From positions 15,503 through 39,502 of the forward strand of contig CABOGK010000004.1 in the NCBI GenBank assembly GCA_902399855.1: a stretch of DNA of 24,000 bases, written 5' to 3'. The position numbers were made by a program, and so were the translations under genes. Source of the DNA: Erysipelotrichaceae bacterium. GTDB lineage: Bacteria; Bacillota_I; Bacilli_A; Erysipelotrichales; Erysipelotrichaceae. The notes beneath the pieces are model-generated. The model saw nothing but the letters and a program-made list of their open reading frames with translations, had not been told where the DNA came from and made no database searches. Position 1 is the stretch's first letter, and each line of letters begins with the position of its first letter. This document shows, piece by piece, positions 3,870-24,000 of the stretch.

Positions 3870-3924
3870 TTTCCTATGGTTAGGAAAAATCTTATTTTTT
3901 GATTTTAGAAAAATAGCCTATAAT
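3870..3924 (+). promoter_or_regulatory. Operator-like palindrome plus predicted promoter of the HAD gene
   Basis: Perfect TTTCCTAtggtTAGGAAA at 3870-3887. TATAAT at 3919-3924 lies 31 nt downstream, followed by the GGAAAGGA RBS and ATG 3952. The -35 region is weak. Confidence 0.6.
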
Positions 3925-3951: not shown

Positions 3952-4728
3952 ATGCATACATTATTTTTTGATTTTGATGGTACTTTACGTGTACCAGAAA
4001 CCAATGAAGTTTCAAAAGAAACAATACAGAATTTAAGAACTTTGCGAAAAGAAGGGAATTTGATCTTTATTAATACTGGACGTTGTTTTTCTTCTTTAGA
4101 AGGACAGGCCAAAGATTTACCGTTAGATGGTGTTATTTGTGGATGTGGTACTTATATTCGATATCGAGGACAGATATTATATGAAGTACAAGCTACATCG
4201 ATTCAAAAAGAGCGTGTGCTCAAGGCTTTACGCACATGTCGGCTCGATGCGTTTTTAGAAGGTCATGGTGGCCTGTTTGTCGATCAGACGTATTCAGATC
4301 AGCTGAACCAGGTGATTTCCTTTTTTAAACGAATGAATGTAAATATGTTGTCTACAGAGGATCCTTCTTTTGAGTTTTCTAAGATGAGTCTCTATTATAC
4401 AGATCAAAAACAAAAAGATGAATTTGAAAGTCTGTTAAAGGAAGATTTTGACTTTATCAACTTCCCAAATCTTAAAGCGGAGGCTGTTTTAAAAGGGCAC
4501 TCGAAAGCCAGTGGTATGCGCATGTTATTGAAAGAATTATCACTTCCATGTTCTACAAGTATCGCCTTTGGTGATAGTGATAATGACATGGAGATGTTAA
4601 AGGAAGCAAGCTGCAGTGTTTTAATTGGAAAGCATGCCCCGCATTTACAAGAGTTAGCCGATCTAAAAGCTCCGTCTGCCAAAGAAGAAGGAATCAGCTG
4701 GGCGTTACGAAAATTGAATTTGATTTAA
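3952..4728 (+). CDS. Cof-type HAD-IIB family hydrolase (probable sugar-phosphate phosphatase)
   Basis: 258 aa with HAD motif I FFDFDGTL at the N-terminus and motif IV GDSDNDMEML near the C-terminus, separated by a cap-sized insert. A good RBS is present. Confidence 0.85.
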   Translation: MHTLFFDFDGTLRVPETNEVSKETIQNLRTLRKEGNLIFINTGRCFSSLEGQAKDLPLDGVICGCGTYIRYRGQILYEVQATSIQKERVLKALRTCRLDAFLEGHGGLFVDQTYSDQLNQVISFFKRMNVNMLSTEDPSFEFSKMSLYYTDQKQKDEFESLLKEDFDFINFPNLKAEAVLKGHSKASGMRMLLKELSLPCSTSIAFGDSDNDMEMLKEASCSVLIGKHAPHLQELADLKAPSAKEEGISWALRKLNLI

Positions 4729-4791: not shown

Positions 4792-5546
4792 TTAAAAGGA
4801 TGAATGAAAATTCAATTGTTCCAGAATTTTAGGCTGTAATTCGTTTTGAACATGAAGAATAGAAAAAGCTTGGTGGATATCTGAAATTGAGCTACTTTCC
4901 AATAAAATGGAAATGTTGTCAATTAAATTATCCAACTTTCTTTTTCCGTGCCAGAAAAGCGCCCTGGACAAATGTGCACATTTCTCAAATATGCATCTTT
5001 TTTAGGATTAATAGAATTTGGTTGAATTCTCTGTCGGATAGAAACAGTAAAGATAATAACTCCATGATATCTTTTGAGATTCCATAGATCTCTGGATCAA
5101 ATCGAAAGTCTTCGTTTTTCTTTCTTTTCTTCGGTTGTATATTCTAACCAGTCGCTATCTTTTTTCTTCGCATTGCGCAAGCAGATCCAAATCGATCGAA
5201 CATCGAGCCCTCATCGTACAACATGTTCTGAAATCCTGGAGAATGGTTTTGTTGGCCGGCAATGAGTCGATAGGCATATTAAAGACCACGGCGGAAAAGA
5301 CGATACGTATAGGATCCTTCATCTTGGGCTTCAATACGAATCAGAATGCATCGCTCATCTTGGAAGGGATGAGACTGGCTGAATCAGAGAAGCTGTTTCT
5401 TGCAGGGAAAGATGTTTACATTTGTCTAAACATTGTTGAAGAAGAACAGCTTGAAGCAATTTAAAAGAAAGAATGATTTTGGACTGGGCATCAAAATACT
5501 GCTTGTCCAGTTCCAAAATATGACCTAATTCGTTTAAATGTGAGAT
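4792..5546 (-). pseudogene. Decayed gene of unknown function (multiple frameshifts/stops, no canonical start)
   Basis: Minus-strand translation gives protein-like segments that hop between all three frames. In order these are ISHLNELGHILELDKQYFDAQSKIILSFKLLQAVLLQQCLDKCKHLSLQETASLIQPVSS, then SQDERCILIRIEAQDEGSYTYRLFRRGL, then KDSDWLEYTTEEKKEKRRLSI, then DPEIYGISKDIMELLSLLFLSDREFNQILLILKKMHI, then DNLIDNISILLESSSISDIHQAFSILHVQNELQPKILEQLNFHSSF. An AGGTGG RBS at 5559-5554 is followed by ATC rather than ATG. LSLQETASLI could be an HTH remnant. Confidence 0.45.
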
Positions 5547-5670: not shown

Positions 5671-6552
5671 TTATTCAATGGGTTTTTGATAGAAAGCACC
5701 GTAGAAGTGATGCGTCTTATAGACATTGATCAAAACATCGGGTTTGACATTACGAATACAGTCAATAGCATCACGTTGTTCATAGGTGCTGATAACGGTT
5801 TTGCAGACATAATAAGGTTTTTTACTATAAGCTCCCTGCCCTTTTAAGATTGTCATTCCATGACGGAATTGATTAAGAAAAGCATCGCTGACCGTTTCCG
5901 GATCATCGGTGGTGATTTCCAGAGTTACCTGGGCATAACGATCATAAAAACCAGAAATGGTCTTGGTTGAGATAAACTGAAAAACCAGGGAATAACCGGC
6001 TGCTTCCCAACCAAAGAGAGCACCGAAGATCAATATCAAAGTAGCATTGAATAAAAATACATAATCCCATAAACTCTTATGGATTTTATTGGATACATAG
6101 AGAGCAATAAAATCGGTACCTCCGGTTGAGGCATCGGCTTTTAGGGCAAGAGAGATAGAAAGGCCGTATAAAAAGCCACCAAATAATATATTCAACATTT
6201 TGTCATCGAAAAAAGGCGTAAAGTCAAAGACTTGTAAGAATAAAGAGACTAAACCAAACTGCAGACAGCTTAAAAAAGTAAAGCGATGGGATACGCTTTT
6301 ATAGCACAAAAGAGCGGCTGGAATATTTAAAACTAAGATGCCCAAGGATACGGAAAAATCAATGCCAAGCAGTTGAGTGATGCGACTGATCAGAATGGAA
6401 AGACCAGTAAATCCGCTAGAAAGCAGGTCGCAAGGATTCATAAAAACCTGTATGATATAAACCTGCATCCATGCACTGGCTATGATTAAAAGTACAGAGA
6501 ATATAAAGCGTGCAATTTTGTTTTTTTGAAGTTGATGAATCTGAGAAGCCAT
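5671..6552 (-). CDS. YitT-family membrane protein (DUF2179 C-terminal domain)
   Basis: 293 aa with several hydrophobic helices, then a soluble C-terminal domain similar to the fragment at 2-226. An AAGGAAGG RBS lies upstream of ATG 6552. Confidence 0.8.
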   Translation of the reverse strand: MASQIHQLQKNKIARFIFSVLLIIASAWMQVYIIQVFMNPCDLLSSGFTGLSILISRITQLLGIDFSVSLGILVLNIPAALLCYKSVSHRFTFLSCLQFGLVSLFLQVFDFTPFFDDKMLNILFGGFLYGLSISLALKADASTGGTDFIALYVSNKIHKSLWDYVFLFNATLILIFGALFGWEAAGYSLVFQFISTKTISGFYDRYAQVTLEITTDDPETVSDAFLNQFRHGMTILKGQGAYSKKPYYVCKTVISTYEQRDAIDCIRNVKPDVLINVYKTHHFYGAFYQKPIE

Positions 6553-6653: not shown

Positions 6654-6708
6654 TTTCCTAATATTAGGAAACAGGAAAAATGGACAAAATAAAGAGGATG
6701 CATACAAT
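6654..6708 (+). promoter_or_regulatory. Operator-like palindrome plus predicted promoter of the PRD regulator gene
   Basis: Perfect TTTCCTAatatTAGGAAA at 6654-6671. TGGACA at 6681-6686, a 16-nt spacer, then TACAAT at 6703-6708. The gap from palindrome to -10 is 31 nt, identical to the HAD promoter. The predicted leader is very short (SD AAGGGA at 6714-6719), which is a weakness. Confidence 0.55.
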
Positions 6709-6726: not shown

Positions 6727-8640
6727 ATGTTAAATAAACGACAGGAAAAAATCATCATGCTCTTGCAGGATTCGAAGAAATGGATCACGGGTAAGGAATT
6801 TGCCCGTTTGATGAATGTTTCAGATCGAACGATACGAAGTGATATCGATACGATCAATCGTACATACAATGCGCATTTGATCGAATCGAATTTACGCAGT
6901 GGTTATCGAATCAATGAAGAAATATTGACGACATTGCCAATCGAACTCAATGCGGTATCGATTCCGCAGACACCGGATGAGCGTTGTACATATATTTTGC
7001 AGGAGTTAATTTTAGAAAAGAAACAAATCAACTTGTTAGATCTTCAGGAACAAGTTTTTATTAGTGGATATTCTATCGATAACGATATCAAACGCATCAA
7101 AAAGATGTTGGAGCCTTACCAGGATCTTTCTTTGATTCGCTCTAAAAACTGTATTCGTTTGGATGGCAGTGAAGAAAGTAAACGGAAACTTTATAAGCAA
7201 TTACTGTTTGAAGAAACACAGGGAAACTTTTTGAATTTAAATCGACTTTCCAGTATGTTTCATGATTTAGATTTGGAGTATGCCAAAGAAGTTTTGGACA
7301 AGATGTTTAAAAAGTACAATTTTCATGTTCGTGAAATGCAAAAGCCTATGTTGATGATTCATGTAGGAATAGCATTAGAGAGAATGATCCACCACAATTA
7401 TGTGGAAACTTCCAGAGATACACCGGAGCTTAGAAACACCAAGGAATACAGCATCACCAAAGAGTTCTTTGATACGATGGCACAATCGATCCATATCGAT
7501 GTCAATGAAAATGAAGTCGTGTTACTGGCACTTTTGTTGCGAGGGAAGAAAGCCATTACGATGCATAACGACCTTGTACAAAGTGTAACTGATGGCATCA
7601 ATGTCAATGACCTGGTGACAAAGATCGTCACGATGATCAAAGAAGATTTTGATATCGATTTTGTCAAAGATCTCGATCTAAGAACCGGTTTGGCTCTTCA
7701 TATACAAGGCTTGATCGAACGAAAGAAAAAGGATATTGTTGTATCGAATCTATATTTACAGGAATTAAAGAGAAAATATCCGCTTGTCTTTGAATTGGCG
7801 ATTCATGTCGGACAAATCTTAAATGAAACATTAGATATGCAGGTATCAGAAAATGAAGTTGGTTTTTTAGCACTCCATTTAGGAGCCGCTTATGAAAGAT
7901 CGCATTCTTTTCAAAAGTATCGAGTTGTGATGATCTATCCGGTCGATCAGGCTTTTGGGGATATCTTGTTAAGAAAAGTCGATACGCTGTTTTCGGAGCG
8001 AATGACAGTAATTAACTGTTCCAGTTTCTTTGAAGAAAAGATGATCAAAGAGTTAAATCCGGATCTGATCTTGACAACACTGCAGCTGCAGCACAATTTA
8101 GATATTTCAACGATTCAGATTTCTTTGTTTATCAGTACCGAAGATGAAAGTAAGATCTTTCAGGCATTGAATGCTTTGGATAAAAAGCGTTACCAACAAA
8201 AGTTTGAAGATGAACTCATTGATTTGATTGAGCCGGAGTTGTTCTATAAAAATTTGGAGTTGCGCACACCAACCGAAGTGATTACATATATGTGTGATAA
8301 TTTGGAGAAAAAAGGCTATTGCGATTCGTCATTTAAAGAAGCGGTTTTGAAAAGGGAGGAAGTGGCTGCCACCAGCTTTGTTTATTCCTTTGCGGTACCT
8401 CATTCCCTGAATGTACCAAGCTTTCGTCCGGCCATTTCTGTCGGTTTCTTAAAACGTCCGATCAAATGGGGCGAATTTGATGTCAAGATGGTCTTATTGC
8501 TGGCGGTCAATGAAGAACATCAGGATCTTCTGATTATGTTCTTTGAGTGGTTAAGCGGTATGATCAACAATGCCAATCATTTTGCCGCTTTACTGGAAAC
8601 AAAGGATTATGACGACTTTGTCGCCAAGATCGTTGAATAG
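6727..8640 (+). CDS. PRD-domain transcriptional regulator (LicR/MtlR-like: HTH, PRDs, EIIB-like, EIIA-2-like)
   Basis: 637 aa. It has an N-terminal HTH (KWITGKEFARLMNVSDRTIRSDIDTIN) and PRD-type segments (MIHVGIALERM, LALHIQGLIER, FLALHLGAAYER). The EIIB-like segment RVVMIYPVDQ has no Cys. The C-terminal EIIA-2-like domain carries AVPHS. Confidence 0.85.
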   Translation: MLNKRQEKIIMLLQDSKKWITGKEFARLMNVSDRTIRSDIDTINRTYNAHLIESNLRSGYRINEEILTTLPIELNAVSIPQTPDERCTYILQELILEKKQINLLDLQEQVFISGYSIDNDIKRIKKMLEPYQDLSLIRSKNCIRLDGSEESKRKLYKQLLFEETQGNFLNLNRLSSMFHDLDLEYAKEVLDKMFKKYNFHVREMQKPMLMIHVGIALERMIHHNYVETSRDTPELRNTKEYSITKEFFDTMAQSIHIDVNENEVVLLALLLRGKKAITMHNDLVQSVTDGINVNDLVTKIVTMIKEDFDIDFVKDLDLRTGLALHIQGLIERKKKDIVVSNLYLQELKRKYPLVFELAIHVGQILNETLDMQVSENEVGFLALHLGAAYERSHSFQKYRVVMIYPVDQAFGDILLRKVDTLFSERMTVINCSSFFEEKMIKELNPDLILTTLQLQHNLDISTIQISLFISTEDESKIFQALNALDKKRYQQKFEDELIDLIEPELFYKNLELRTPTEVITYMCDNLEKKGYCDSSFKEAVLKREEVAATSFVYSFAVPHSLNVPSFRPAISVGFLKRPIKWGEFDVKMVLLLAVNEEHQDLLIMFFEWLSGMINNANHFAALLETKDYDDFVAKIVE

Positions 8641-8650
8641 GAGGACTATC

Positions 8651-9238
8651 ATGAGTAAAAAACATAATATAAGGGCCGGAATACAGCTGCAAAAGACGAG
8701 TGTGAATAACTTTTCTCGTGTAGGTGCCTATTTGATTGACTGGTATATCGCATCGATGTTTGCCGGTATTCCGATTACCTTGATTGCCACATCGATTAAT
8801 CATAATACAACGATCACACAGGATTTAAGCACCTTACCATTAGGTTGGGCCGTTTTAGCCGGTATTTTAGCTATCGTCTTTTATCTGGGCTATTATTTTG
8901 TCGTAGAACTGAAAGTCTATAAAGGACAAAGCTTTGGAAAGCGTATCTTTAAGCTGAAGGTTGTAAAAGATGATGGAAGCGATGTGGATTTTAAAACGAT
9001 CCTGCTACGAGAAGGCTTGGGAATCATGATTGTCGAAGGATATTTAGCTAACAGTTCCAGTTATCTTCGTCAGATTCTGCAGCTTTTTACCGATTTTAAT
9101 ATCATGGATCTTGCGGTCTATTTATTTGGAATCATTTCGGCGGTTTCGATTTTGATCGGACTTGCCAGTCCTTCTCGAAAGATGATTCATGACTTTATTG
9201 CGCATACGCATATTATCAGTACAAAAGATGAGAATTGA
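8651..9238 (+). CDS. RDD-family membrane protein
   Basis: The RDD hallmarks are present: FSRVGAYLIDWYI, a hydrophobic helix pair, GQSFGKRIFKLKVVKDDG, LLRE, and SRKMIHDFIAHTHII. I moved the start from the ORF-track 8570 to ATG 8651 because AGGAGG at 8639-8644 lies 6 nt upstream. The gene sits 10 nt after the regulator stop, so the two are probably co-transcribed. Confidence 0.8.
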   Translation: MSKKHNIRAGIQLQKTSVNNFSRVGAYLIDWYIASMFAGIPITLIATSINHNTTITQDLSTLPLGWAVLAGILAIVFYLGYYFVVELKVYKGQSFGKRIFKLKVVKDDGSDVDFKTILLREGLGIMIVEGYLANSSSYLRQILQLFTDFNIMDLAVYLFGIISAVSILIGLASPSRKMIHDFIAHTHIISTKDEN

Positions 9239-9294
9239 TTTCCTAGAGATAGGAAATCATTTATTTTGTATGAATTTTCACAAAATGTTAACGT
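9237..9294 (+). promoter_or_regulatory. Palindrome (operator and/or terminator hairpin) plus weak predicted EIIC promoter
   Basis: GATTTCCTAgagaTAGGAAATC at 9237-9258 contains the perfect TTTCCTA-N4-TAGGAAA core (9239-9256). It overlaps the RDD stop and is followed by ATTTATTTT, so it is terminator-like. TTGTAT at 9266-9271 and the extended -10-like TGtTAACGT at 9286-9294 put the -10 32 nt after the palindrome. Confidence 0.45.
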
Positions 9295-9319
9295 TATTTC
9301 AAGAAAGAGAGGGTATATT

Positions 9320-10675
9320 ATGGATAAACTCGAAAAACTGCTCATGCCAATGGCAGATATTCTTACGAAAAACCGAGTTTTGATTGCGATTCGAGATGGA
9401 TTCTTGATCACGACACCATTGTTGATCGTAGGATCGATTTTCTTGTTGATCGCAAACTTCCCGATTCCCGGATGGGAAGAGGCAATCTCATCTGTATTAG
9501 GTCCAGACTGGACAGGATGGTTTACAGCGGTATCTAAGGCATCCTTTAACTGTACCGGTTTATTGACAGCTTTAGGTACAGGGTATGCGATGGCTCGTGA
9601 ATTTGGCGGTGATAAGATTCAGGGTGCAGCTGTTGCGGCTGTTGCGTTCTTTATTTTGATGCCAACGACACACATTGCCAGCGATGCAGATGGTAATTTG
9701 GTAGAAGGTGCTACCGTTGCCGGTTTGTCTTTTGACTACATCGGACCAGATGGTATCTTCATGGCGTTGATTTGTGCGATTTTAGGTGTATGGTTGTTCT
9801 GCTTTGCGTATAAAAAAGGCTGGACGATCAAAATGCCTAAGGGTGTTCCTCCGGCAGTTACAGATTCTTTTGCCGCTTTAGTACCAAGTGCAATGGTTAT
9901 GGCAGCTGCCTTCCTGATTCGAATTCTGTTTTCCTTTACAGAATTTGGAACAATGCAGGACTTTGTTGTTGCAATCTTACAGACACCATTACAAGGTTTA
10001 GGTGATACATTAGGAGCTAATGCACTATATACATTCATGTGTTCTTTCCTTTGGTTCTTTGGTATCAACGGTCCGGCTGTATGTAACTCTGTTTACTTCA
10101 TCGGAAATGTATTAACGGCACAGCAGTTATTGGCATTTGAAGCTGGAAAAGAATTACCATATATCTTTACCAACCCATTCAGTAACTTCTTTACCAACTT
10201 TGGAGGCGGAGGTTCCACATTAGGTCTTGTGATTTTGATGTGTACGGTTTGTAAGTCACAGCGAATCAAACAATTGGGACGTTTGTCTATCGTACCAGGT
10301 TTCTTTGGAATCAACGAACCAATCATCTTTGGTTTACCAGTTGTATTGAACCCAATTATTGCGATTCCATTCATTCTGGCTCCGATGTTGAACCTGACAT
10401 TGTCTTATTTTGCCACACTTTGGGAAATCATTCCAAAGACAACCGGTGTAAACTTGCCTTGGACAACCCCAATCGGATTCTCCGGATGGCTTTCTACCGG
10501 TTCCTGGACAGCCAGTGTATGGCAGTTGTTCTTACTGGCACTGAACATGTTGATCTACTTCCCATTCTTAAAGACATTGGATAAAAAATATCTGCAGGAT
10601 GAGGCTAATGCGGAAGCTGCCGGTGGCGAAGAAGAAGACATTTCTTTTGATGATTTAGATTTAGACGATCTATAA
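9320..10675 (+). CDS. PTS EIIC, lactose/cellobiose (type-3) family; no adjacent EIIA/EIIB
   Basis: The N-terminus MDKLEKLLMPMADILTKNRVLIAIRDGFLITTPLLIVGSIFLL and the GINEPIIFGLPVVLNP motif are typical of type-3 EIIC, and the protein is polytopic. I moved the start from 9266 to ATG 9320 (GAGAGGG at 9307-9313). It has an acidic C-terminal tail. Confidence 0.9.
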   Translation: MDKLEKLLMPMADILTKNRVLIAIRDGFLITTPLLIVGSIFLLIANFPIPGWEEAISSVLGPDWTGWFTAVSKASFNCTGLLTALGTGYAMAREFGGDKIQGAAVAAVAFFILMPTTHIASDADGNLVEGATVAGLSFDYIGPDGIFMALICAILGVWLFCFAYKKGWTIKMPKGVPPAVTDSFAALVPSAMVMAAAFLIRILFSFTEFGTMQDFVVAILQTPLQGLGDTLGANALYTFMCSFLWFFGINGPAVCNSVYFIGNVLTAQQLLAFEAGKELPYIFTNPFSNFFTNFGGGGSTLGLVILMCTVCKSQRIKQLGRLSIVPGFFGINEPIIFGLPVVLNPIIAIPFILAPMLNLTLSYFATLWEIIPKTTGVNLPWTTPIGFSGWLSTGSWTASVWQLFLLALNMLIYFPFLKTLDKKYLQDEANAEAAGGEEEDISFDDLDLDDL

Positions 10676-10684
10676 GATTGATGC

Positions 10685-10717
10685 AAAAGCAGGCCATCTA
10701 TCCTGATGCCTGTTTTT
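10685..10717 (+). terminator. Rho-independent terminator/attenuator after EIIC
   Basis: AAAAGCAGGC (10685-10694) pairs with GCCTGTTTTT (10708-10717, one G-U pair) and runs into a T-tract. Confidence 0.65.
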
Positions 10718-10755
10718 GTGCTTATATAGTATAATAACGATAAGGAGGCATACTG

Positions 10756-11277
10756 ATGAAAGTAATGATGATTTTTGATCAGACCCAGGCAGGGTTAGGC
10801 GGTAAAGAAAGCCCGGATCTTGCGATGGGAGGAAAGGCAATGGCGATTGGCTCCTGTGGAATGTTTGAACGTTTTATGCAACAAAATGATGGTAAGATCA
10901 TTGCCACATTGTATTGTGGAGATGGAACATTCAAAGAAGATCCGGAAAAGAATGCCAGGAAGTTTGCGGCCATGGCTAAAAAGTTTAATCCGGATGTAGT
11001 GATCTGTGGGCCATGTTTTAACTATCCAGGCTATGGATGGATGGCAGCCAAGACAGCACTAACTATCAACGAGCATACGGACATTCCGGCTTTTGCGATC
11101 ATGTCCAAAGAATGTGAACAAGCCATTGAAGAATTCAAAGATAAAGTTACGATCTTGAAAATGCCAAAAAAAGGTGGAACCGGATTAAACGAAGCATTAA
11201 GCGAAATGTGCGTATTTGCGCGTATGTTAGCGAATAAAGAAGATACGACAGCGTTTATTCAGGAACACGCCTATTAA
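10756..11277 (+). CDS. Small protein resembling the N-terminal half of glycine/sarcosine/betaine reductase selenoprotein B (GrdB-like, no Sec)
   Basis: 173 aa. Four segments match my recollection of GrdB N-termini (..Y.NQF.aGiGGE..A, CGD.yF, PD..iaGPaFNagRYG): MMIFDQTQAGLGGKESPD, IIATLYCGDGTFKEDPEKN, PDVVICGPCFNYPGYGWMA and GGTGLNEAL. There is no in-frame TGA. A strong AAGGAGG RBS is present. The match is from memory, not a computed alignment. Confidence 0.55.
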   Translation: MKVMMIFDQTQAGLGGKESPDLAMGGKAMAIGSCGMFERFMQQNDGKIIATLYCGDGTFKEDPEKNARKFAAMAKKFNPDVVICGPCFNYPGYGWMAAKTALTINEHTDIPAFAIMSKECEQAIEEFKDKVTILKMPKKGGTGLNEALSEMCVFARMLANKEDTTAFIQEHAY

Positions 11278-11290
11278 AATTAAACTTTCC

Positions 11291-11328
11291 AAAGAGGTCA
11301 ATCCACTATCCACAGACCTCTTTTTTTT
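11291..11328 (+). terminator. Rho-independent terminator after the GrdB-like gene
   Basis: AAAGAGGTC (11291-11299) pairs with GACCTCTTT (11315-11323) and is followed by a T8 run. Confidence 0.8.
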
Positions 11329-11330
11329 GA

Positions 11331-11387
11331 CTTCCTATAAGCTAGGAAACAACCTTAAAATATGAAGAAACGAAAAAAGCCTATAAT
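11331..11387 (+). promoter_or_regulatory. Near-palindrome plus predicted promoter of the M42 gene pair
   Basis: CTTCCTAtaagcTAGGAAA at 11331-11349 (one arm mismatch, spacer 5). TATAAT at 11382-11387 lies 32 nt downstream. The implied transcription start lies after ORF-track ATG 11362, which supports ATG 11416. Confidence 0.55.
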
Positions 11388-11415
11388 AAAACTGACAGAG
11401 AAAGGTGGCTTAATT

Positions 11416-12462
11416 ATGTATAATGAATGGATGAAAGAATTAACGCAGATCATAGGTGTATCAGGTGATGAAAAAAGAGTTTCTCGTTACTTGGCAAAGG
11501 CTTATCAAGGACAATGCGATAAAATCGTTTATGATAATTTAGGATCGGTATTTGCGCTCAAGAAAAGTAAAAAAGAAAATGCGAAACGTGTGATGGTTTG
11601 TGCCCATATGGATGAAGTTGGTTTGATGATCACAGAAATTCAGGAGAATGGATTATTGTCTTTTATCAAGATCGGGCCAATTGAAGAAAAGGCTTTATAT
11701 GGAAGCAGAGTGCGTATTCAGACACGCGAAAAAGAATTGATCGGTGTAATTGTAGCCGATGAAGATGCGATAAAAAATAACGATGTAAAAGGAATGCGCA
11801 TCGATATCGGAGCAGACAGTAAAGAAGAAGTACAGACACAAGGCATCATGGCCGGGGATACGGCAGTTTTTACCGGTGAATATACAACTTTACATCAAAA
11901 TCGTATCATGGCCAAGGCAGCCGATGCTCGCCACGGTTGTGTACTGGGGCTTGCATTATTACAGGCATTGAAGGATGTAGAACTGGACTTTGATTTATAT
12001 GTGGGTGCCAGCGTCATGGAAGAGGTTGGACAACGTGGAGGAACCACAGCCACCGGTTTGATTCATCCGGATCTTGGCATTGTATTAGATGGTGGAGCAG
12101 CCAGTGACTATAAAGGAAAAGACAATGAAGTCGGACAGTTAGGAAAAGGCGTTCTGATTCGATATTACGATAAAGGAATGATGCCAAATCGTGGATTATT
12201 GTTAGAACTGGAAACAGTTTGTAAAGAAAACAAGATCGATTCGCAATACTACTACACGATGACACTGACGGATTCTGCCTGGGTACATAAGCTGTTTAGC
12301 GGCTGTCCTACTTTGACATTGGGTGTTTGTGCCAGAAACTCTCATACCGGAAATGTAGAAATTGATATGCATGATCTGGATTGTGCCAAAAAGGCATTGG
12401 TTGAAATTGTCAAAGGCTTAAACGAAGAGAAGATACAGAAGTTTAAGGAATATAATCGCTAG
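11416..12462 (+). CDS. M42-family metallo-aminopeptidase (FrvX/YsdC/CelM-like), divergent paralogue
   Basis: Metal-ligand motifs are CAHMDEVG, KAADARHG, MEEVGQRG, VLDGG and a late His (ARNSHTG). I moved the start to ATG 11416 (AAAGGTGG at 11401-11408). Confidence 0.85.
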   Translation: MYNEWMKELTQIIGVSGDEKRVSRYLAKAYQGQCDKIVYDNLGSVFALKKSKKENAKRVMVCAHMDEVGLMITEIQENGLLSFIKIGPIEEKALYGSRVRIQTREKELIGVIVADEDAIKNNDVKGMRIDIGADSKEEVQTQGIMAGDTAVFTGEYTTLHQNRIMAKAADARHGCVLGLALLQALKDVELDFDLYVGASVMEEVGQRGGTTATGLIHPDLGIVLDGGAASDYKGKDNEVGQLGKGVLIRYYDKGMMPNRGLLLELETVCKENKIDSQYYYTMTLTDSAWVHKLFSGCPTLTLGVCARNSHTGNVEIDMHDLDCAKKALVEIVKGLNEEKIQKFKEYNR

Positions 12463-12476
12463 AAAGGATGTTTTCT

Positions 12477-13562
12477 ATGACAAAAGAAGCAATAGGAGAT
12501 ATCAATTTAGAGATGCTGAAGGAATTCAGCGAAGCCCATGGTATTAGTGGCAACGAAAAAGAAGTCAGCCGCATCATGAAAAAATGGATGCAGCCTTATG
12601 CCGATGAAATTACCTACGACAACAATGGTTCTATTCTCGGTGTGCAAAAAGGTACAGAAAATGTATCTTTGATGATTGCCGGTCACATGGATGAAGTGGG
12701 CTTTCTGGTTCGTGAAATTGATAAGAATGGATTTATTCGATTGTTGCCGGTTGGAGGCTGGTGGGGACATGTACTACCAAGCCAAACATTGGTTGTAACG
12801 ACACGGGAAGGAAAGCGATATCAGGGGGTCGTCGGTTCCAGTGCACCACATGGTCTTTCCAAGGAAGTGAAAGAAAAAGTCATTCACCCGTTAGACTTGT
12901 TTTTGGATATGGGTGTAGAAAATGCACAGGAAATCTATGATCTGGGGATTCAGATTGGTGACATGGTTACACCGGATACACAGTTTACTGTCATGAATAA
13001 CCCTAATTATTTGATGGGAAAAGCATGGGATGATCGTTTATGTGCTGCTATGGTAGTCGATGTTATGCGCATGCTTCGAAAAGAAGCACACGCTTGTACG
13101 TTGTATGGTGTAGGTACAGTACAGGAAGAAGTTGGATTACGAGGAGCCAGAACTGCCAGCGGTATGTTACATCCGGATGTGGCGATTGCTTTAGATGTAA
13201 CCACAAGCATGGATACTCCGATGGATCAAGGAGCTAATGGCCTAGGAAAAGGTGTCATACTCAGTGTGATGGATGCCGGTATCATCGGTAACAAAAATTT
13301 CCTGTATGAAATGGAGCGAATCTGTAAAGATTTAAATCTGGATATCAACTATGATATGATGACAGTCGGTGGAACGGATGCTGACAATATCCATAAGGCG
13401 CATGATGGTGTTGTGACCATGACACTTTCTATTCCCACACGTTATATGCATTCGCATCGTTTGATCATTCATAGAAAGGACTACTGGCAAACGGTTTTAC
13501 TGATGGCTGAATTTGCTCGTCGTCTGGATACAAATCTGTTAAAACAGCTAAAACAATTTTAG
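12477..13562 (+). CDS. M42-family metallo-aminopeptidase, canonical paralogue
   Basis: Motifs are AGHMDEVG, GKAWDDRLC, VQEEVGLRG, ALDVT and PTRYMHSH. The start is ATG 12477 (GAAAGGA at 12462-12468 overlaps the ORF-track ATG 12468). It lies about 15 nt after the upstream paralogue. Confidence 0.9.
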   Translation: MTKEAIGDINLEMLKEFSEAHGISGNEKEVSRIMKKWMQPYADEITYDNNGSILGVQKGTENVSLMIAGHMDEVGFLVREIDKNGFIRLLPVGGWWGHVLPSQTLVVTTREGKRYQGVVGSSAPHGLSKEVKEKVIHPLDLFLDMGVENAQEIYDLGIQIGDMVTPDTQFTVMNNPNYLMGKAWDDRLCAAMVVDVMRMLRKEAHACTLYGVGTVQEEVGLRGARTASGMLHPDVAIALDVTTSMDTPMDQGANGLGKGVILSVMDAGIIGNKNFLYEMERICKDLNLDINYDMMTVGGTDADNIHKAHDGVVTMTLSIPTRYMHSHRLIIHRKDYWQTVLLMAEFARRLDTNLLKQLKQF

Positions 13563-13588
13563 GCGAGATCAAAATCTCGTCTTTTTTA
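13562..13588 (+). terminator. Rho-independent terminator after the M42 pair
   Basis: CGAGAT (13564-13569) pairs with ATCTCG (13574-13579) and is followed by TCTTTTTT. Confidence 0.75.
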
Positions 13589-13597
13589 GAAAAGCGA

Positions 13598-13628
13598 TTG
13601 ACCTTCCATCCACTGTAAGGTGTTTTAT
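13598..13628 (+). promoter_or_regulatory. MerR-type promoter with long spacer and internal dyad
   Basis: TTGACC (13598-13603), a 19-nt spacer, then TTTTAT (13623-13628). The dyad ACCTTCC (13601-13607) / GTAAGGT (13615-13621) spans the -35 and spacer. The layout closely resembles the CueR-controlled copA promoter type (TTGACCTTCC...GGAAGGT). The exact -10 is ambiguous (TATAAG at 13626-13631 is an alternative). Confidence 0.55.
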
Positions 13629-13646
13629 AAGGGTGAGGTGAAGGAT

Positions 13647-14740
13647 ATGAAAATCAAAAAGGCAGCGGAAATGTGTCAAATGACACCACGAAATATTCGC
13701 TTTTATGAAGAAGTAGGTTTGATTCAGGCAACAAGAGTTGAAAATGGATATCGGGATTATGGAAAGAAAGATATTGAAAGACTTCAACAAATTCGCACAT
13801 TGCGAAATCTTGGCATCCGCATTGATTCGATCAAAGCGTATTTAAAAAGGAGAAGACTTTTTATCAGATTATTCAAGAGCGTAAACAAGAGCTGAATCGT
13901 CAAAGAAAAGACATGGATGCAATCTATCAAATGTGTGAGCAGTTAGAAAATCAAAAGCTTCCATTAAGCAGCAGTGTAACCAATCTCATAGAAGATACGT
14001 TACAAGAAAAAAGATATAGGTCCAAAAAACCGGTTTATGTTCGCTTGTTGTCCAATAATGTGAAAAATCGATTGAGTCGGCGAGCTGTATTGATAAATAG
14101 TATTGCCGGACTGCTAATATTTTTTGTATTAGGTTATTTGTTTTTAGGCAATCTTTTGAATACATTATTGAAGAATTCCGGAAATTTTTCACAGCCTATG
14201 ATCAATTCGTTGATCTTTATTCTTGTGCTTATCCTAACATTTTTGATGTCTGTTTATATGTGTAAGACTACCTACTTTGAACTTCGTGAAGATGGTATCT
14301 ATTATCTGGATAAACAATCGCCATGTTCTTCATGGGATTTGTTTATACATATTTTGAAAAACGATTATTTATCATGTATGGAATTTGTATCTTTTGATGA
14401 TTTGGTGGCGGTCAAAGTGGATGCACAGACCAAAGGTATGATTACAGGAGGAAATCACTTTATTTCTTTCTTTATCATTTTATTTACGAAGGATGAACGA
14501 GCCATTCGTTTGGATTCCAATCTGTTTTATGGGGAAGAACACTTTATGCTGGTGTTCCGTGTATTACATGATAAAGCGCCCAAATGGATTGATCCCAAAC
14601 ATTTAGATAAAATCCTGGAGATGTCGCATGAAAAGGCCTATAAGTTTTTAGATGACTACTTTTGGGAAAAACGTCCATGGCATAAAACATCTAGATATCA
14701 GAAATGGAAAAATAAACAGAAAGAAAGAGATAAAAAATGA
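13647..14740 (+). pseudogene. MerR-family HTH fused to a 2-TM / PH-like C-terminal region, interrupted by a -1 frameshift in an A-run
   Basis: The MerR HTH is MKIKKAAEMCQMTPRNIRFYEEVGLIQATRVENGYRDYGKKDIERLQQIRTLRNLG. Frame 0 stops at 13895. The -1 frame is open from 13841 and reads KKEKTFYQIIQERKQELNRQRKDMDAIYQMCEQLENQKL (a typical MerR coiled coil) straight into ORF 13913-14740. That ORF has two hydrophobic helices and a beta-rich domain. The junction is at TTTAAAAAGG (13841-13850). Confidence 0.6.
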
Positions 14741-15237
14741 GTTTAAAAGAACTTTCAAAACAGTATATTTTATTGGCATCTATTTATACAGGATCTTATT
14801 CCAGGACACCATTTGAAATGACATATCGAGTGTATCCCGGCTATGTGCATGTAGAGTATGATGAGCATGGATTCTTACTGAAATATAAACAGGAGCAGTA
14901 TTCTTTTTCGTATGCAGATATTGAATCGTTGGAATTGTCGGTTTGTGGGCGAAGAGCAACTATTCGACAAAGCTATGTACTCACGATCCATATAAAAGTA
15001 AAAGAATGGGATTTGGAAATAGAAACGTATGATTTTGATGATGCGATGATATTTTGTCAAAGAGCACCGAAAGAAGTTTTTACGGATCGGCTTAACTTAA
15101 TTTCTTTGTATCAGAAGCTCAAACAAAACCCGAAAATGTTTTATCAGTATTTGAATAAACATAATGAAGATATCTTTAAAGATTGTCCACAAGATCGAAG
15201 AAGAATAGATTTTGTACGGAAAAGTCGAGCTAAATAG
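14737..15237 (+). CDS. Hypothetical protein, translationally coupled to the MerR-membrane gene
   Basis: 166 aa with an ATGA start/stop overlap at 14737-14740. I recognised no family. The beta-rich core is followed by a basic C-terminus. Confidence 0.6.
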   Translation: MSLKELSKQYILLASIYTGSYSRTPFEMTYRVYPGYVHVEYDEHGFLLKYKQEQYSFSYADIESLELSVCGRRATIRQSYVLTIHIKVKEWDLEIETYDFDDAMIFCQRAPKEVFTDRLNLISLYQKLKQNPKMFYQYLNKHNEDIFKDCPQDRRRIDFVRKSRAK

Positions 15238-23414: not shown

Positions 23415-24000
23415 ATGGAAAGAAAATTAATGACTAAACTCAAACAGTGGAAAGAAGATAAGAACAGAAAGCCGTTGATTATACGAGGGGCACGTCAAGT
23501 TGGAAAAACATGGATCATGAAGGAATTCGGAAAACGGTATTTTGATCAGTTTGTATATATTAATTTTGATGAAAACAGGCGAATGAAAGATTTATTTGAA
23601 GGAAATATTGATCCTAAAACAATACTTATGCTACTCAATGCAGAAACAGGTATTTCCATTCACTCGGAAACAACACTGATTATATTTGATGAAGTTCAGG
23701 AAGTTCCCAGAGCTTTAACGTCTTTAAAATATTTTTATGAAGAAGCACCGGAATATCCTGTTATTGCAGCTGGATCCTTATTAGGCGTAGCACTTCATGA
23801 GGGAACCTCTTTTCCTGTAGGGAAAGTATCGTTTCTAAATTTATATCCATTATCTTTTATAGAATTTTTGGATGCCTGCAATGAAACGGCATTAGTGCAA
23901 CTTTTAAAAGATAGAAACCAAAATACGTTCCAATTATTAAAAGAGAAATATATCGAAAGATTAAAACAATATTATTTTGTAGGAGGTATGCCAGAGGCTG
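23415..24000 (+). CDS. AAA-family ATP-binding protein (AAA_14/DUF4143 type), 3' end outside window
   Basis: This gene is not in the ORF track because it runs off the window. AGGAG at 23404-23408 precedes ATG 23415. The translation begins MERKLMTKLKQWKEDKNRKPLIIRGARQVGKTWIMKEFGKRYFDQFVYINFDE, and further along the ORF reads TTLIIFDEVQEVPRALTSLKYFYEE. That gives Walker A GARQVGKT and Walker B IIFDEVQ. The N-terminal architecture is typical of DUF4143 ATPases. Confidence 0.8.
   Translation, partial: MERKLMTKLKQWKEDKNRKPLIIRGARQVGKTWIMKEFGKRYFDQFVYINFDENRRMKDLFEGNIDPKTILMLLNAETGISIHSETTLIIFDEVQEVPRALTSLKYFYEEAPEYPVIAAGSLLGVALHEGTSFPVGKVSFLNLYPLSFIEFLDACNETALVQLLKDRNQNTFQLLKEKYIERLKQYYFVGGMPEA

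Follow-up and report, generated by a model that had tools for sequence, protein, structure and literature searches.

Six genes at positions 6727-13562 of a 24,000-nucleotide stretch of DNA from an Erysipelotrichaceae bacterium (the whole stretch is hereafter called the window) encode a PRD-containing transcription activator, an RDD-family membrane protein, a phosphotransferase system (PTS) permease subunit (EIIC), a protein resembling the N-terminal part of GrdB, and two M42 peptidases. We propose, at a probability of roughly 0.6 and from sequence comparison, that this block is the transporter/peptidase half of a split PRD regulon salvaging N-acetylglucosaminyl-asparagine (GlcNAc-Asn), and probably short GlcNAc-Asn peptides too. 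The source of this stub of the N-glycan core would probably be host or dietary glycoproteins. The proposal starts from what was observed here, namely gene content, conservation of the neighbourhood and of the operator, subfamily membership, and homology to a locus of Enterococcus faecalis named ega (enterococcal glycosylasparaginase). The ega-type core is already known, and what appears to be new is a PRD-regulated, M42-type and physically split form of such an ega-like glyco-asparagine PTS. In the gut the host supplies a major nutrient in the form of N-glycoprotein debris, and we know of just two model systems for the use of the final GlcNAc-Asn stub by Firmicutes.

An earlier, sequence-only reading of the window had listed the same six genes on one strand, in the order regulator, RDD, EIIC, GrdB-like, M42-1, M42-2, and profile annotation of each protein with Pfam and NCBIfam confirmed the set, the order and the forward strand. 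The regulator (6727-8640, + strand) is of the MtlR/LicR type. Its Pfam domains (HTH_11, Mga, two PRD and a C-terminal EIIA_2) make up the architecture of MtlR/LicR/ManR-type activators, i.e. a helix-turn-helix (HTH) and Mga-like part, two PRDs and a C-terminal EIIA(Mtl/Fru)-like domain, and no EIIB(Gat)-like domain was found in it by Pfam. The RDD protein (8651-9238, +; 195 residues with three hydrophobic segments) is apparently co-transcribed with the regulator. Its longest open reading frame (ORF) is 8570-9238, but gene calls of identical contigs start at 8651, and with this start the 10-nucleotide gap previously noted between the two genes is correct. The EIIC (9320-10675, +; 451 residues) lies in an ORF spanning 9266-10675 with the real ATG at 9320. 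It scored 371 bits on TIGR00410 (lactose/cellobiose-family IIC) and stayed under the equivalog cut-offs of the cellobiose, lactose and chitobiose IIC models (for chitobiose IIC, 157 bits against a cut-off of 760). The GrdB-like protein, which lacks selenocysteine, follows at 10756-11277 (+; 173 residues; NF041545).

The two M42 peptidases, here called a (M42-1; 11362-12462, +) and b (M42-2; 12468-13562, +, called start 12477), share 31% identity and match PF05343 with 251 and 305 bits, respectively. The metal-ligand motifs HMDEVG, D, EEVG, D and H are complete in both paralogs, so that the whole H, D, EE, D, H set is kept. Both proteins match PRK09961 and PRK09864, the NCBIfam models for M42 proteins of E. 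coli PTS operons, below cut-off, and the nearest solved structure of M42-2 is B. subtilis YsdC (1VHE). For M42-1 the likelier start is the ATG at 11416, since that at 11362 precedes a TATAAT box (11383-11388) and a ribosome-binding site (GGTGG) is found in front of the one at 11416. The block is free of genes for lac-type IIA and IIB and for a glycosidase, kinase or isomerase. The earlier statement that it lacks a glycoside hydrolase, kinase or isomerase was hence correct, and the companion statement that it lacks EIIA and EIIB holds for the lac-type subunits, albeit a regulatory EIIA_2 domain forms part of the regulator.

The missing PTS subunits came into view beyond the window. The region past position 24000 was read from contigs matching the window, including its split MerR-like gene, and continues with genes for AAA_14/DUF4143, M19 and M3 (both on the - strand), IIA, IIB, Asparaginase_2 and M20. 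The group IIA-IIB-glycosylasparaginase-M20 starts about 4 kb past the window end, adjoins the divergent M3 and M19 genes, and is followed by CutC in sister strains. The glycosylasparaginase gene lies about 4.6 kb past the window end in identical contigs (L088:18566-19528). The genome's Asparaginase_2 protein scored 199 bits against a Flavobacterium glycosylasparaginase versus 122 bits against isoaspartyl peptidases. Glycosylasparaginases are also the proteins that it matches best in the PDB, and the HDT autoprocessing/nucleophile motif is kept. The M20 protein encoded downstream of it is of the PepV/Sapep type (344 bits on TIGR01887, cut-off 208).

The IIA and IIB of this downstream operon are 52-55% identical to IIA and IIB proteins that share an operon with GrdB-linked EIICs elsewhere, whereas the IIB (18265) and IIA (19960) encoded in the window reach 32-34% identity to such system-linked subunits. 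The window pair, which the sequence-only reading had taken as the nearest IIA and IIB, belongs to an unrelated cellobiose/GH1 locus, and the likely cognates are encoded just past the window end, behind the same palindrome as the block (see below). The EIIC, previously described as an orphan, appears as such only within the window, because the window ends before these IIA and IIB genes and because it is the latter that resemble system-linked subunits.

A common operator connects the two halves. The window has exactly three copies of the palindrome TTTCCTA-N4-TAGGAAA (3870-3887, 6654-6671 and 9239-9256), where 0.23 copies are expected and none of 100 shuffled sequences reached three. These copies, together with a fourth with a 5-nucleotide spacer, bear out the earlier observation of a palindrome common to the block, and past the window a further copy, with one mismatch, lies between the M3 and IIA genes. 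Copy 1 (TTTCCTATGGTTAGGAAA, 3870-3887) is located about 65 nucleotides upstream of the gene of a HAD phosphatase and about 32 nucleotides upstream of a TATAAT box. Copy 2 (TTTCCTAATATTAGGAAA, 6654-6671) is located directly upstream of the regulator's promoter-like site TGGACA-16-TACAAT, a position that is conserved in relatives and that suggests autoregulation. Copy 3 (TTTCCTAGAGATAGGAAA, 9239-9256) is located 64 nucleotides upstream of the EIIC start and forms the stem of a terminator-like hairpin (9236-9259; a 10-bp stem followed by a T-rich run) immediately 3' of the RDD stop codon; it could therefore be both the terminator of the regulator-RDD unit and the operator of the next unit. The variant copy (TTCCTA-TAAGC-TAGGAA, 11332-11348) precedes the TATAAT box at 11383-11388 and the M42 pair. 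The canonical 4-nucleotide spacer is present at this position in Faecalicoccus (L007), Holdemanella, Amedibacillus and others, and the M42 unit may consequently be less tightly controlled in the window's species.

Hairpins with T-runs resembling intrinsic terminators also close the EIIC/GrdB-like unit (11291-11328, +; -11 kcal/mol, z -3.4) and the M42 unit (13561-13582, +; -11.1 kcal/mol, z -3.9). The block is thus divided into three apparent transcription units, regulator-RDD, EIIC/GrdB-like and M42a-M42b, each with a palindrome in front. Three of the four operator copies in the window are found some 32-34 nucleotides upstream of a recognisable -10 box, and the copy at 9239-9256 has just a weak candidate -10 element. 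With its centre near -50 the palindrome would suit an activator of the MtlR/LicR type, and from these positions we infer that the regulator acts by activation rather than repression. Across relatives the palindrome is always intergenic and mostly about 55-70 nucleotides upstream of regulator, IIA/EIIC, M42 or HAD genes, a spacing that holds from Erysipelotrichaceae to Clostridium, Peptacetobacter and Streptococcus. It was present in 22 of 32 loci with a PRD regulator versus 4 of 48 without, and in these four the regulator is probably uncalled or off the contig. A conserved operator is now on offer for a PRD activator family.

The conservation of the block was assessed by a scan with an alignment of the GrdB-like protein, taking one genome per species (80 loci), followed by ORF calling, clustering and Pfam annotation. 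The surveyed taxa were Erysipelotrichaceae, Clostridium, Peptostreptococcaceae, Tissierellia, Enterococcus, Vagococcus, Lactobacillaceae, Lachnospiraceae and a few Actinobacteria. All counts below refer to 84 GrdB-like genes in 79 of the 80 species loci, with "nearby" meaning within 10 kb. A lac-type EIIC was nearby in every case (84/84) and directly adjoined the GrdB-like gene in 75. Asparaginase_2 was nearby in 66 and M20 in 68 cases, IIB in 59, RDD in 46 and CutC in 33. M42 genes were nearby in 47 neighbourhoods, a tandem M42 pair in the same gene run was found in 42, and both M42 and Asparaginase_2 in 35. In all 42 tandem pairs the order is orthologous to that of the window, the first gene corresponding to M42-1 and the second to M42-2, and this constant pairing suggests that M42a and M42b may form a hetero-oligomer. 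The genes are a conserved functional unit and not adjacent by chance; the refuting condition set by the sequence-only reading, that they are neighbours only in this genome, clearly fails for an association kept across 79 species in several orders.

Three types of regulator were found in the survey, a PRD activator, a GntR/UTRA protein and a sigma-54 LevR-like activator, and the presence of RDD follows them (24 of 31 cases with PRD, 14 of 18 with sigma-54 and 1 of 26 with GntR). In Romboutsia and Terrisporobacter (L052, L068-L070) genes for GH4 (ChbF-like) and YdjC (ChbG-like) proteins are inserted between the PRD regulator and IIA-IIB-EIIC-GrdB-like, and these variants hint at chitobiosyl-Asn or a related N-glycan-core cargo. 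CutC, annotated as a "copper homeostasis" TIM-barrel protein (e.g. L004:20483 onward and L018:19814-20519), closes the gene row in many species, in a conserved position behind glycosylasparaginase and M20, which suggests an enzymatic rather than a copper-related role, possibly in the catabolism of glycosylasparagine or GlcNAc.

The GrdB-linked EIICs are 43-90% identical to the window EIIC, whereas other lac-type EIICs in the same loci reach 28-34%, and the second lac-type EIIC of the window 28%. By these identities the protein is placed in a separate subfamily and not among ordinary cellobiose permeases, in agreement with the earlier supposition that the cargo is not a plain disaccharide and the EIIC not an ordinary cellobiose or chitobiose permease. 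Neighbour-joining trees built for the EIICs and for the GrdB-like proteins agree in their branching, each being divided into two old clades. In clade A the gene order is IIA-IIB-EIIC-GrdB-like-glycosylasparaginase-M20, in some cases followed by CutC. In clade B, which includes the window, many enterococci, clostridia and a lactobacillal subgroup, the M42 pair follows, often with M20. Both clades were found together in the genomes of L023, L033, L036, L046 and L048. Two GrdB-like genes, sometimes with two EIICs, were seen in L033, L036, L038, L046, L048 and L023, one copy per clade; one copy adjoins the M42 pair and the other adjoins glycosylasparaginase/M20. In the clostridial two-copy cases no EIIC adjoins the second GrdB-like gene.

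The primary study of the E. faecalis ega locus is reportedly that of Combret et al. (Res Microbiol 175:104169, 2023). According to PMC11549559, which cites it, the locus comprises a GntR regulator, a dipeptidase, EgaG, a lac/cellobiose-type EIIB and EIIC, and a "putative oxidoreductase", EgaG being an N4-(beta-GlcNAc)-L-asparaginase. PMC11976118, another citing paper, states that the ega PTS takes up GlcNAc-L-Asn with a shared EIIA, CelA1, acting in trans. The E. faecalis locus that we retrieved via its EIIC (GntR, M20, Asparaginase_2, IIB, EIIC and an intact GrdB-like protein of 172 residues) matches the locus as described in PMC11549559. The proteins of the window system are 46% (EIIC), 39% (GrdB-like) and 57% (glycosylasparaginase, in the EgaG position) identical to their E. 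faecalis counterparts.

The two systems share the EIIC subfamily, a GrdB-like gene directly downstream of EIIC, and a glycosylasparaginase and a PepV/Sapep-type M20 in the same regulon. Both also have PTS components supplied from outside the immediate operon. On the other hand, the window system belongs to the paralogous clade B and adds M42a-M42b, RDD, M3, M19, HAD and CutC. It is under a PRD/Mga/EIIA_2 activator with a palindromic operator instead of the GntR/UTRA-type repressor of the enterococcal and lactobacillal versions, and its two halves are some 14 kb from each other. The earlier remark that the gene combination corresponds to no described system accordingly needs to be divided: the core of IIB/IIC, GrdB-like protein, glycosylasparaginase and dipeptidase is already described in E. 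faecalis, and NF041545 is a curated family, but the M42-rich variant appears to be new.

A second point of comparison is the alf-2 cluster of Lacticaseibacillus casei (alfR2-pepV-asnA2-sugK, alfHC), which serves the use of fucosyl-alpha-1,6-GlcNAc-Asn (PMC6960285). There, too, a glycosylasparaginase and an M20 of the PepV type serve together to degrade a glyco-amino acid of the N-glycan core in the cytoplasm. The work on it indicated that glycosylasparaginases need free alpha-amino and alpha-carboxyl groups, and PepV was proposed to trim N-glycopeptides (PMC6960285), a peptidase role like the one that we consider for the window system. The same study drew attention to L. johnsonii ATCC 33200 (locus L081 of our survey), in which GntR-PepV-AsnA2 clusters occur together with PTS genes (PMC6960285). 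The alf-2 system differs by having a major facilitator superfamily permease and a sugar kinase in place of a PTS, and by lacking GrdB-like, M42 and RDD proteins.

M42 genes recur in E. coli PTS operons of unknown substrate, namely frvX in frvABXR, sgcX in sgc and ypdE in ypdDEFGH. The likeness to the window system is an M42 aminopeptidase inside such an operon; the E. coli examples, however, have a fructose- or galactitol-type PTS and a single M42 gene, and to our knowledge no GrdB-like or glycosylasparaginase partner. The chb operon (ChbBCA, ChbF, ChbG) resembles the window system in its lac/cellobiose PTS family, and some relatives of the latter carry the GH4 and YdjC genes mentioned above, but the window block has neither glycosidase nor deacetylase and its EIIC subfamily is distinct.

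In the mechanism that we propose, the PRD activator (6727-8640) would bind the palindrome about 50 nucleotides upstream of the predicted transcription starts and would switch on four units in the window, i.e. regulator-RDD, EIIC/GrdB-like, M42a-M42b and the HAD phosphatase. The same palindrome past the window would drive IIA-IIB-glycosylasparaginase-M20 and the divergent M3-M19 genes, and the PRD and EIIA_2 domains of the activator would let the PTS signal substrate availability. The EIIC, together with the downstream IIA and IIB, would import a glyco-amino acid or glycopeptide and phosphorylate its GlcNAc. The two M42 peptidases and the PepV-like M20, perhaps aided by M3 and M19, would then trim flanking residues until the alpha-amino and alpha-carboxyl groups of Asn are free, and the glycosylasparaginase would release Asp and 1-amino-GlcNAc-6-phosphate, yielding GlcNAc-6-phosphate and ammonia.

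The sequence-only reading had also envisaged a glycated or glycosylated amino acid or peptide that is phosphorylated on entry and trimmed by the peptidases. Likeness to ega and the glycosylasparaginase and PepV-type protein of the regulon agree with the glycosylated type; nothing points to glycated (Amadori) compounds, given the absence of deglycase-type enzymes. Removal of the phosphate had been assigned to the Cof-type HAD-IIB phosphatase (3952-4728, +). This gene does share the operator, but a core role is unsupported because a HAD gene is within 10 kb of the GrdB-like gene in only 6 of 84 cases. The phosphatase belongs to the regulon in this genus only and is peripheral to the system.

Several points weigh against a salvage regulon for GlcNAc-Asn and its peptides. 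A cellobiose/GH1 block of about 8.9 kb separates the two halves, and the M42 operator of the window's species has the irregular 5-nucleotide spacer. The characterised E. faecalis locus belongs to clade A, has no M42 genes and has a GntR regulator. PMC11549559 describes the "putative oxidoreductase", i.e. the GrdB-like protein, as a pseudogene in OG1RF, and if GlcNAc-Asn use were shown in a strain with a broken gene, the protein would not be essential there. PepV was dispensable for the use of 6'FN-Asn in L. casei (PMC6960285). That a lac-type EIIC may admit a peptide-extended cargo is a supposition, and that the glycosylasparaginase may use a 6-phosphorylated substrate is assumed.

Of the alternatives the most viable, although in our judgement rather unlikely, is that the cargo is GlcNAc-Asn only, as in E. 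faecalis, and that the M42 pair, M3 and M19 serve co-regulated general peptide scavenging and do not act on molecules imported by the PTS. The E. faecalis locus indeed works on GlcNAc-Asn without M42, according to PMC11976118. Furthermore, 31 of the 84 GrdB-like genes have Asparaginase_2 but no M42 nearby. The peptides cleaved by M3 oligoendopeptidases are of a length that a PTS permease could not take up, which also speaks for separate scavenging. In contrast, the EIIC/GrdB-like pairs associated with M42 and those associated with glycosylasparaginase are two separate ancient clades, and the fact that some genomes keep both side by side (L048, L023) suggests two different cargoes. In addition, the M42 pair is found directly behind EIIC/GrdB-like in 42 loci with a fixed a-b order, and clostridial loci have two M20 and two M42 genes between transporter and glycosylasparaginase.

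The cargo of the M42-type clade could also be another conjugate, such as a muropeptide-like GlcNAc-peptide, an O-GlcNAc peptide or another N-acyl or glycosyl amino acid, with the link to glycosylasparaginase being secondary. We consider this improbable. The EIIC of clade B is just 46% identical to the characterised clade A transporter, M42 genes are present in other PTS operons of unknown substrate (frvX, sgcX, ypdE), and in 12 of 84 cases M42 but not Asparaginase_2 is encoded within 10 kb of the GrdB-like gene. Most of these 12, however, are on truncated contigs or in split systems like that of the window, and glycosylasparaginase is present in 35 of 47 M42 neighbourhoods, often in one operon. 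Locus L041 even combines GntR, M20, glycosylasparaginase, IIB, EIIC, GrdB-like, M42, M42 and IIA in a single operon, and in the window's genome one operator governs both halves.

Strongly disfavoured is the notion that the EIIC is an ordinary cellobiose/chitobiose permease flanked by chance by housekeeping peptidases. A cellobiose-type IIB/IIC/IIA/GH1 locus is close by, and the EIIC scored 371 bits on the cellobiose IIC model TIGR00359, yet this is below the cut-off of 434. The EIIC belongs to a distinct subfamily, the block has no glycosidase, and synteny is kept across the 79 species and several orders with promoters that have a conserved common operator. The characterised relative, moreover, transports GlcNAc-Asn according to PMC11976118.

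The salvage of GlcNAc-Asn and its peptides leaves the GrdB-like protein to be accounted for. The protein scored 250.5 bits on NF041545 ("GrdB_like_no_Se", cut-off 175) over model positions 1-170 of 171, and its ORF is uninterrupted. It matches PF07355 at positions 3-164 only, and on the GrdB/GrdF/GrdH models only the N-terminal ~165 residues align, with 63-69 bits against cut-offs of 602-800. To GrdB of glycine/sarcosine/betaine reductase it is thus homologous over the first ~165 residues (PF07355; E about 1e-17 to 1e-19 on the GrdB/GrdF models), but it differs by lacking selenocysteine, the C-terminal catalytic half and grdA/C/D/E neighbours, and there is no support for a reductase function. 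A full glycine reductase selenoprotein B, a protein of ~430 residues with a Sec-containing C-terminal half, was rejected as an identity on these grounds.

The AlphaFold model of the GrdB-like protein has a flavodoxin-like alpha/beta fold (pLDDT 96.6), and no solved structure or PDB sequence specifically related to the protein was found. The conserved residues (the Gly-rich DQxQAGxGGKE loop conserved in clade B, C54-G55-D56, G85-P86...Y90 and M136-P-K-K-G-G) are located in loops at C-terminal strand ends, as judged by predicted strand positions, an arrangement that suggests a ligand-binding or catalytic pocket. Judged by its occurrence, the protein is the universal signature of the system, tracking its EIIC through an ancient duplication, and most likely it works as a partner in the cytoplasm, binding or processing the phospho-substrate after import. 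That it might instead be a new kind of EIIB standing in for a missing lac-type IIB, as its flavodoxin-like fold with an invariant Cys and the absence of IIB beside EIIC in several loci (including the window block and Lactobacillaceae) could suggest, is hardly credible, since IIB and the GrdB-like protein coexist in 59 of 84 neighbourhoods, hhalign with the lac-type IIB (PF02302) gave a probability of 22.9% with D/Q at the position of the IIB catalytic Cys, and a cognate IIB is present in this genome.

A bolder, tentative extension of the salvage proposal is that the M42-type clade of the PTS imports short N-glycopeptides and that the GrdB-like protein and M42a/M42b constitute a dedicated cytoplasmic module processing the phosphorylated glycopeptide. 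If true, this would be the first PTS cargo with a peptide chain, and the long-puzzling presence of M42 genes in PTS operons (frvX, sgcX, ypdE) would for the first time have a biochemical explanation. The GrdB-like protein would then have arisen from the substrate-specific subunit of glycine reductase and represent a novel class of enzyme or accessory protein of the PTS. More generally, the survey describes the ega-like system as widespread, in 79 species of Erysipelotrichaceae, Clostridia, Peptostreptococcaceae, Tissierellia, enterococci, lactobacilli and some Actinobacteria, and as coming in two ancient paralogous forms. The GrdB-like, RDD and CutC proteins are flagged as conserved parts of one pathway, and the M42-type form makes the puzzle of aminopeptidases in sugar-PTS operons directly testable.

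The ~8.9-kb block between the two halves extends from 15328 through 24000 and on to about 14772 in L088, and it is strain-variable. It comprises genes for HAD (-), a second PRD/EIIA_2 regulator (-), IIB, IIC, IIA and two GH1 proteins, followed by AAA_14/DUF4143. The part from HAD through the second GH1 gene (~15.3-23.2 kb) is missing in some strains (the block is absent from L003, L004, L006 and L007), and the two halves are then close together. L003 and L007 keep just a 146-residue DUF4143 remnant, which suggests that the block was deleted in those strains.

Identical GrdB-like proteins were found in many gut-metagenome contigs and in assembly GCA_012843735.1, and by this protein an uncultured Faecalicoccus, at 94% identity, comes closest among relatives that carry a name. 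Between the M42 pair and the strain-variable block a MerR-family gene is split into 13620-13895 (91 residues) and 13913-14740 (275 residues), likewise in the identical contigs L002 and L088. It is a single ORF of 364 residues in strains L001 and L087, and the split is thus a real strain-level frameshift or pseudogene and not a read error. The end of this gene is overlapped by 4 nucleotides by an ORF at 14737-15237 (166 residues) which, like that at 5135-5464 (109 residues), has no Pfam or NCBIfam match and is conserved in close strains only. Divergent from the regulator, at 5671-6552 (-), the window encodes a YitT/DUF2179 membrane protein, a gene for which is near the system in 28 of 84 cases, in different orders.

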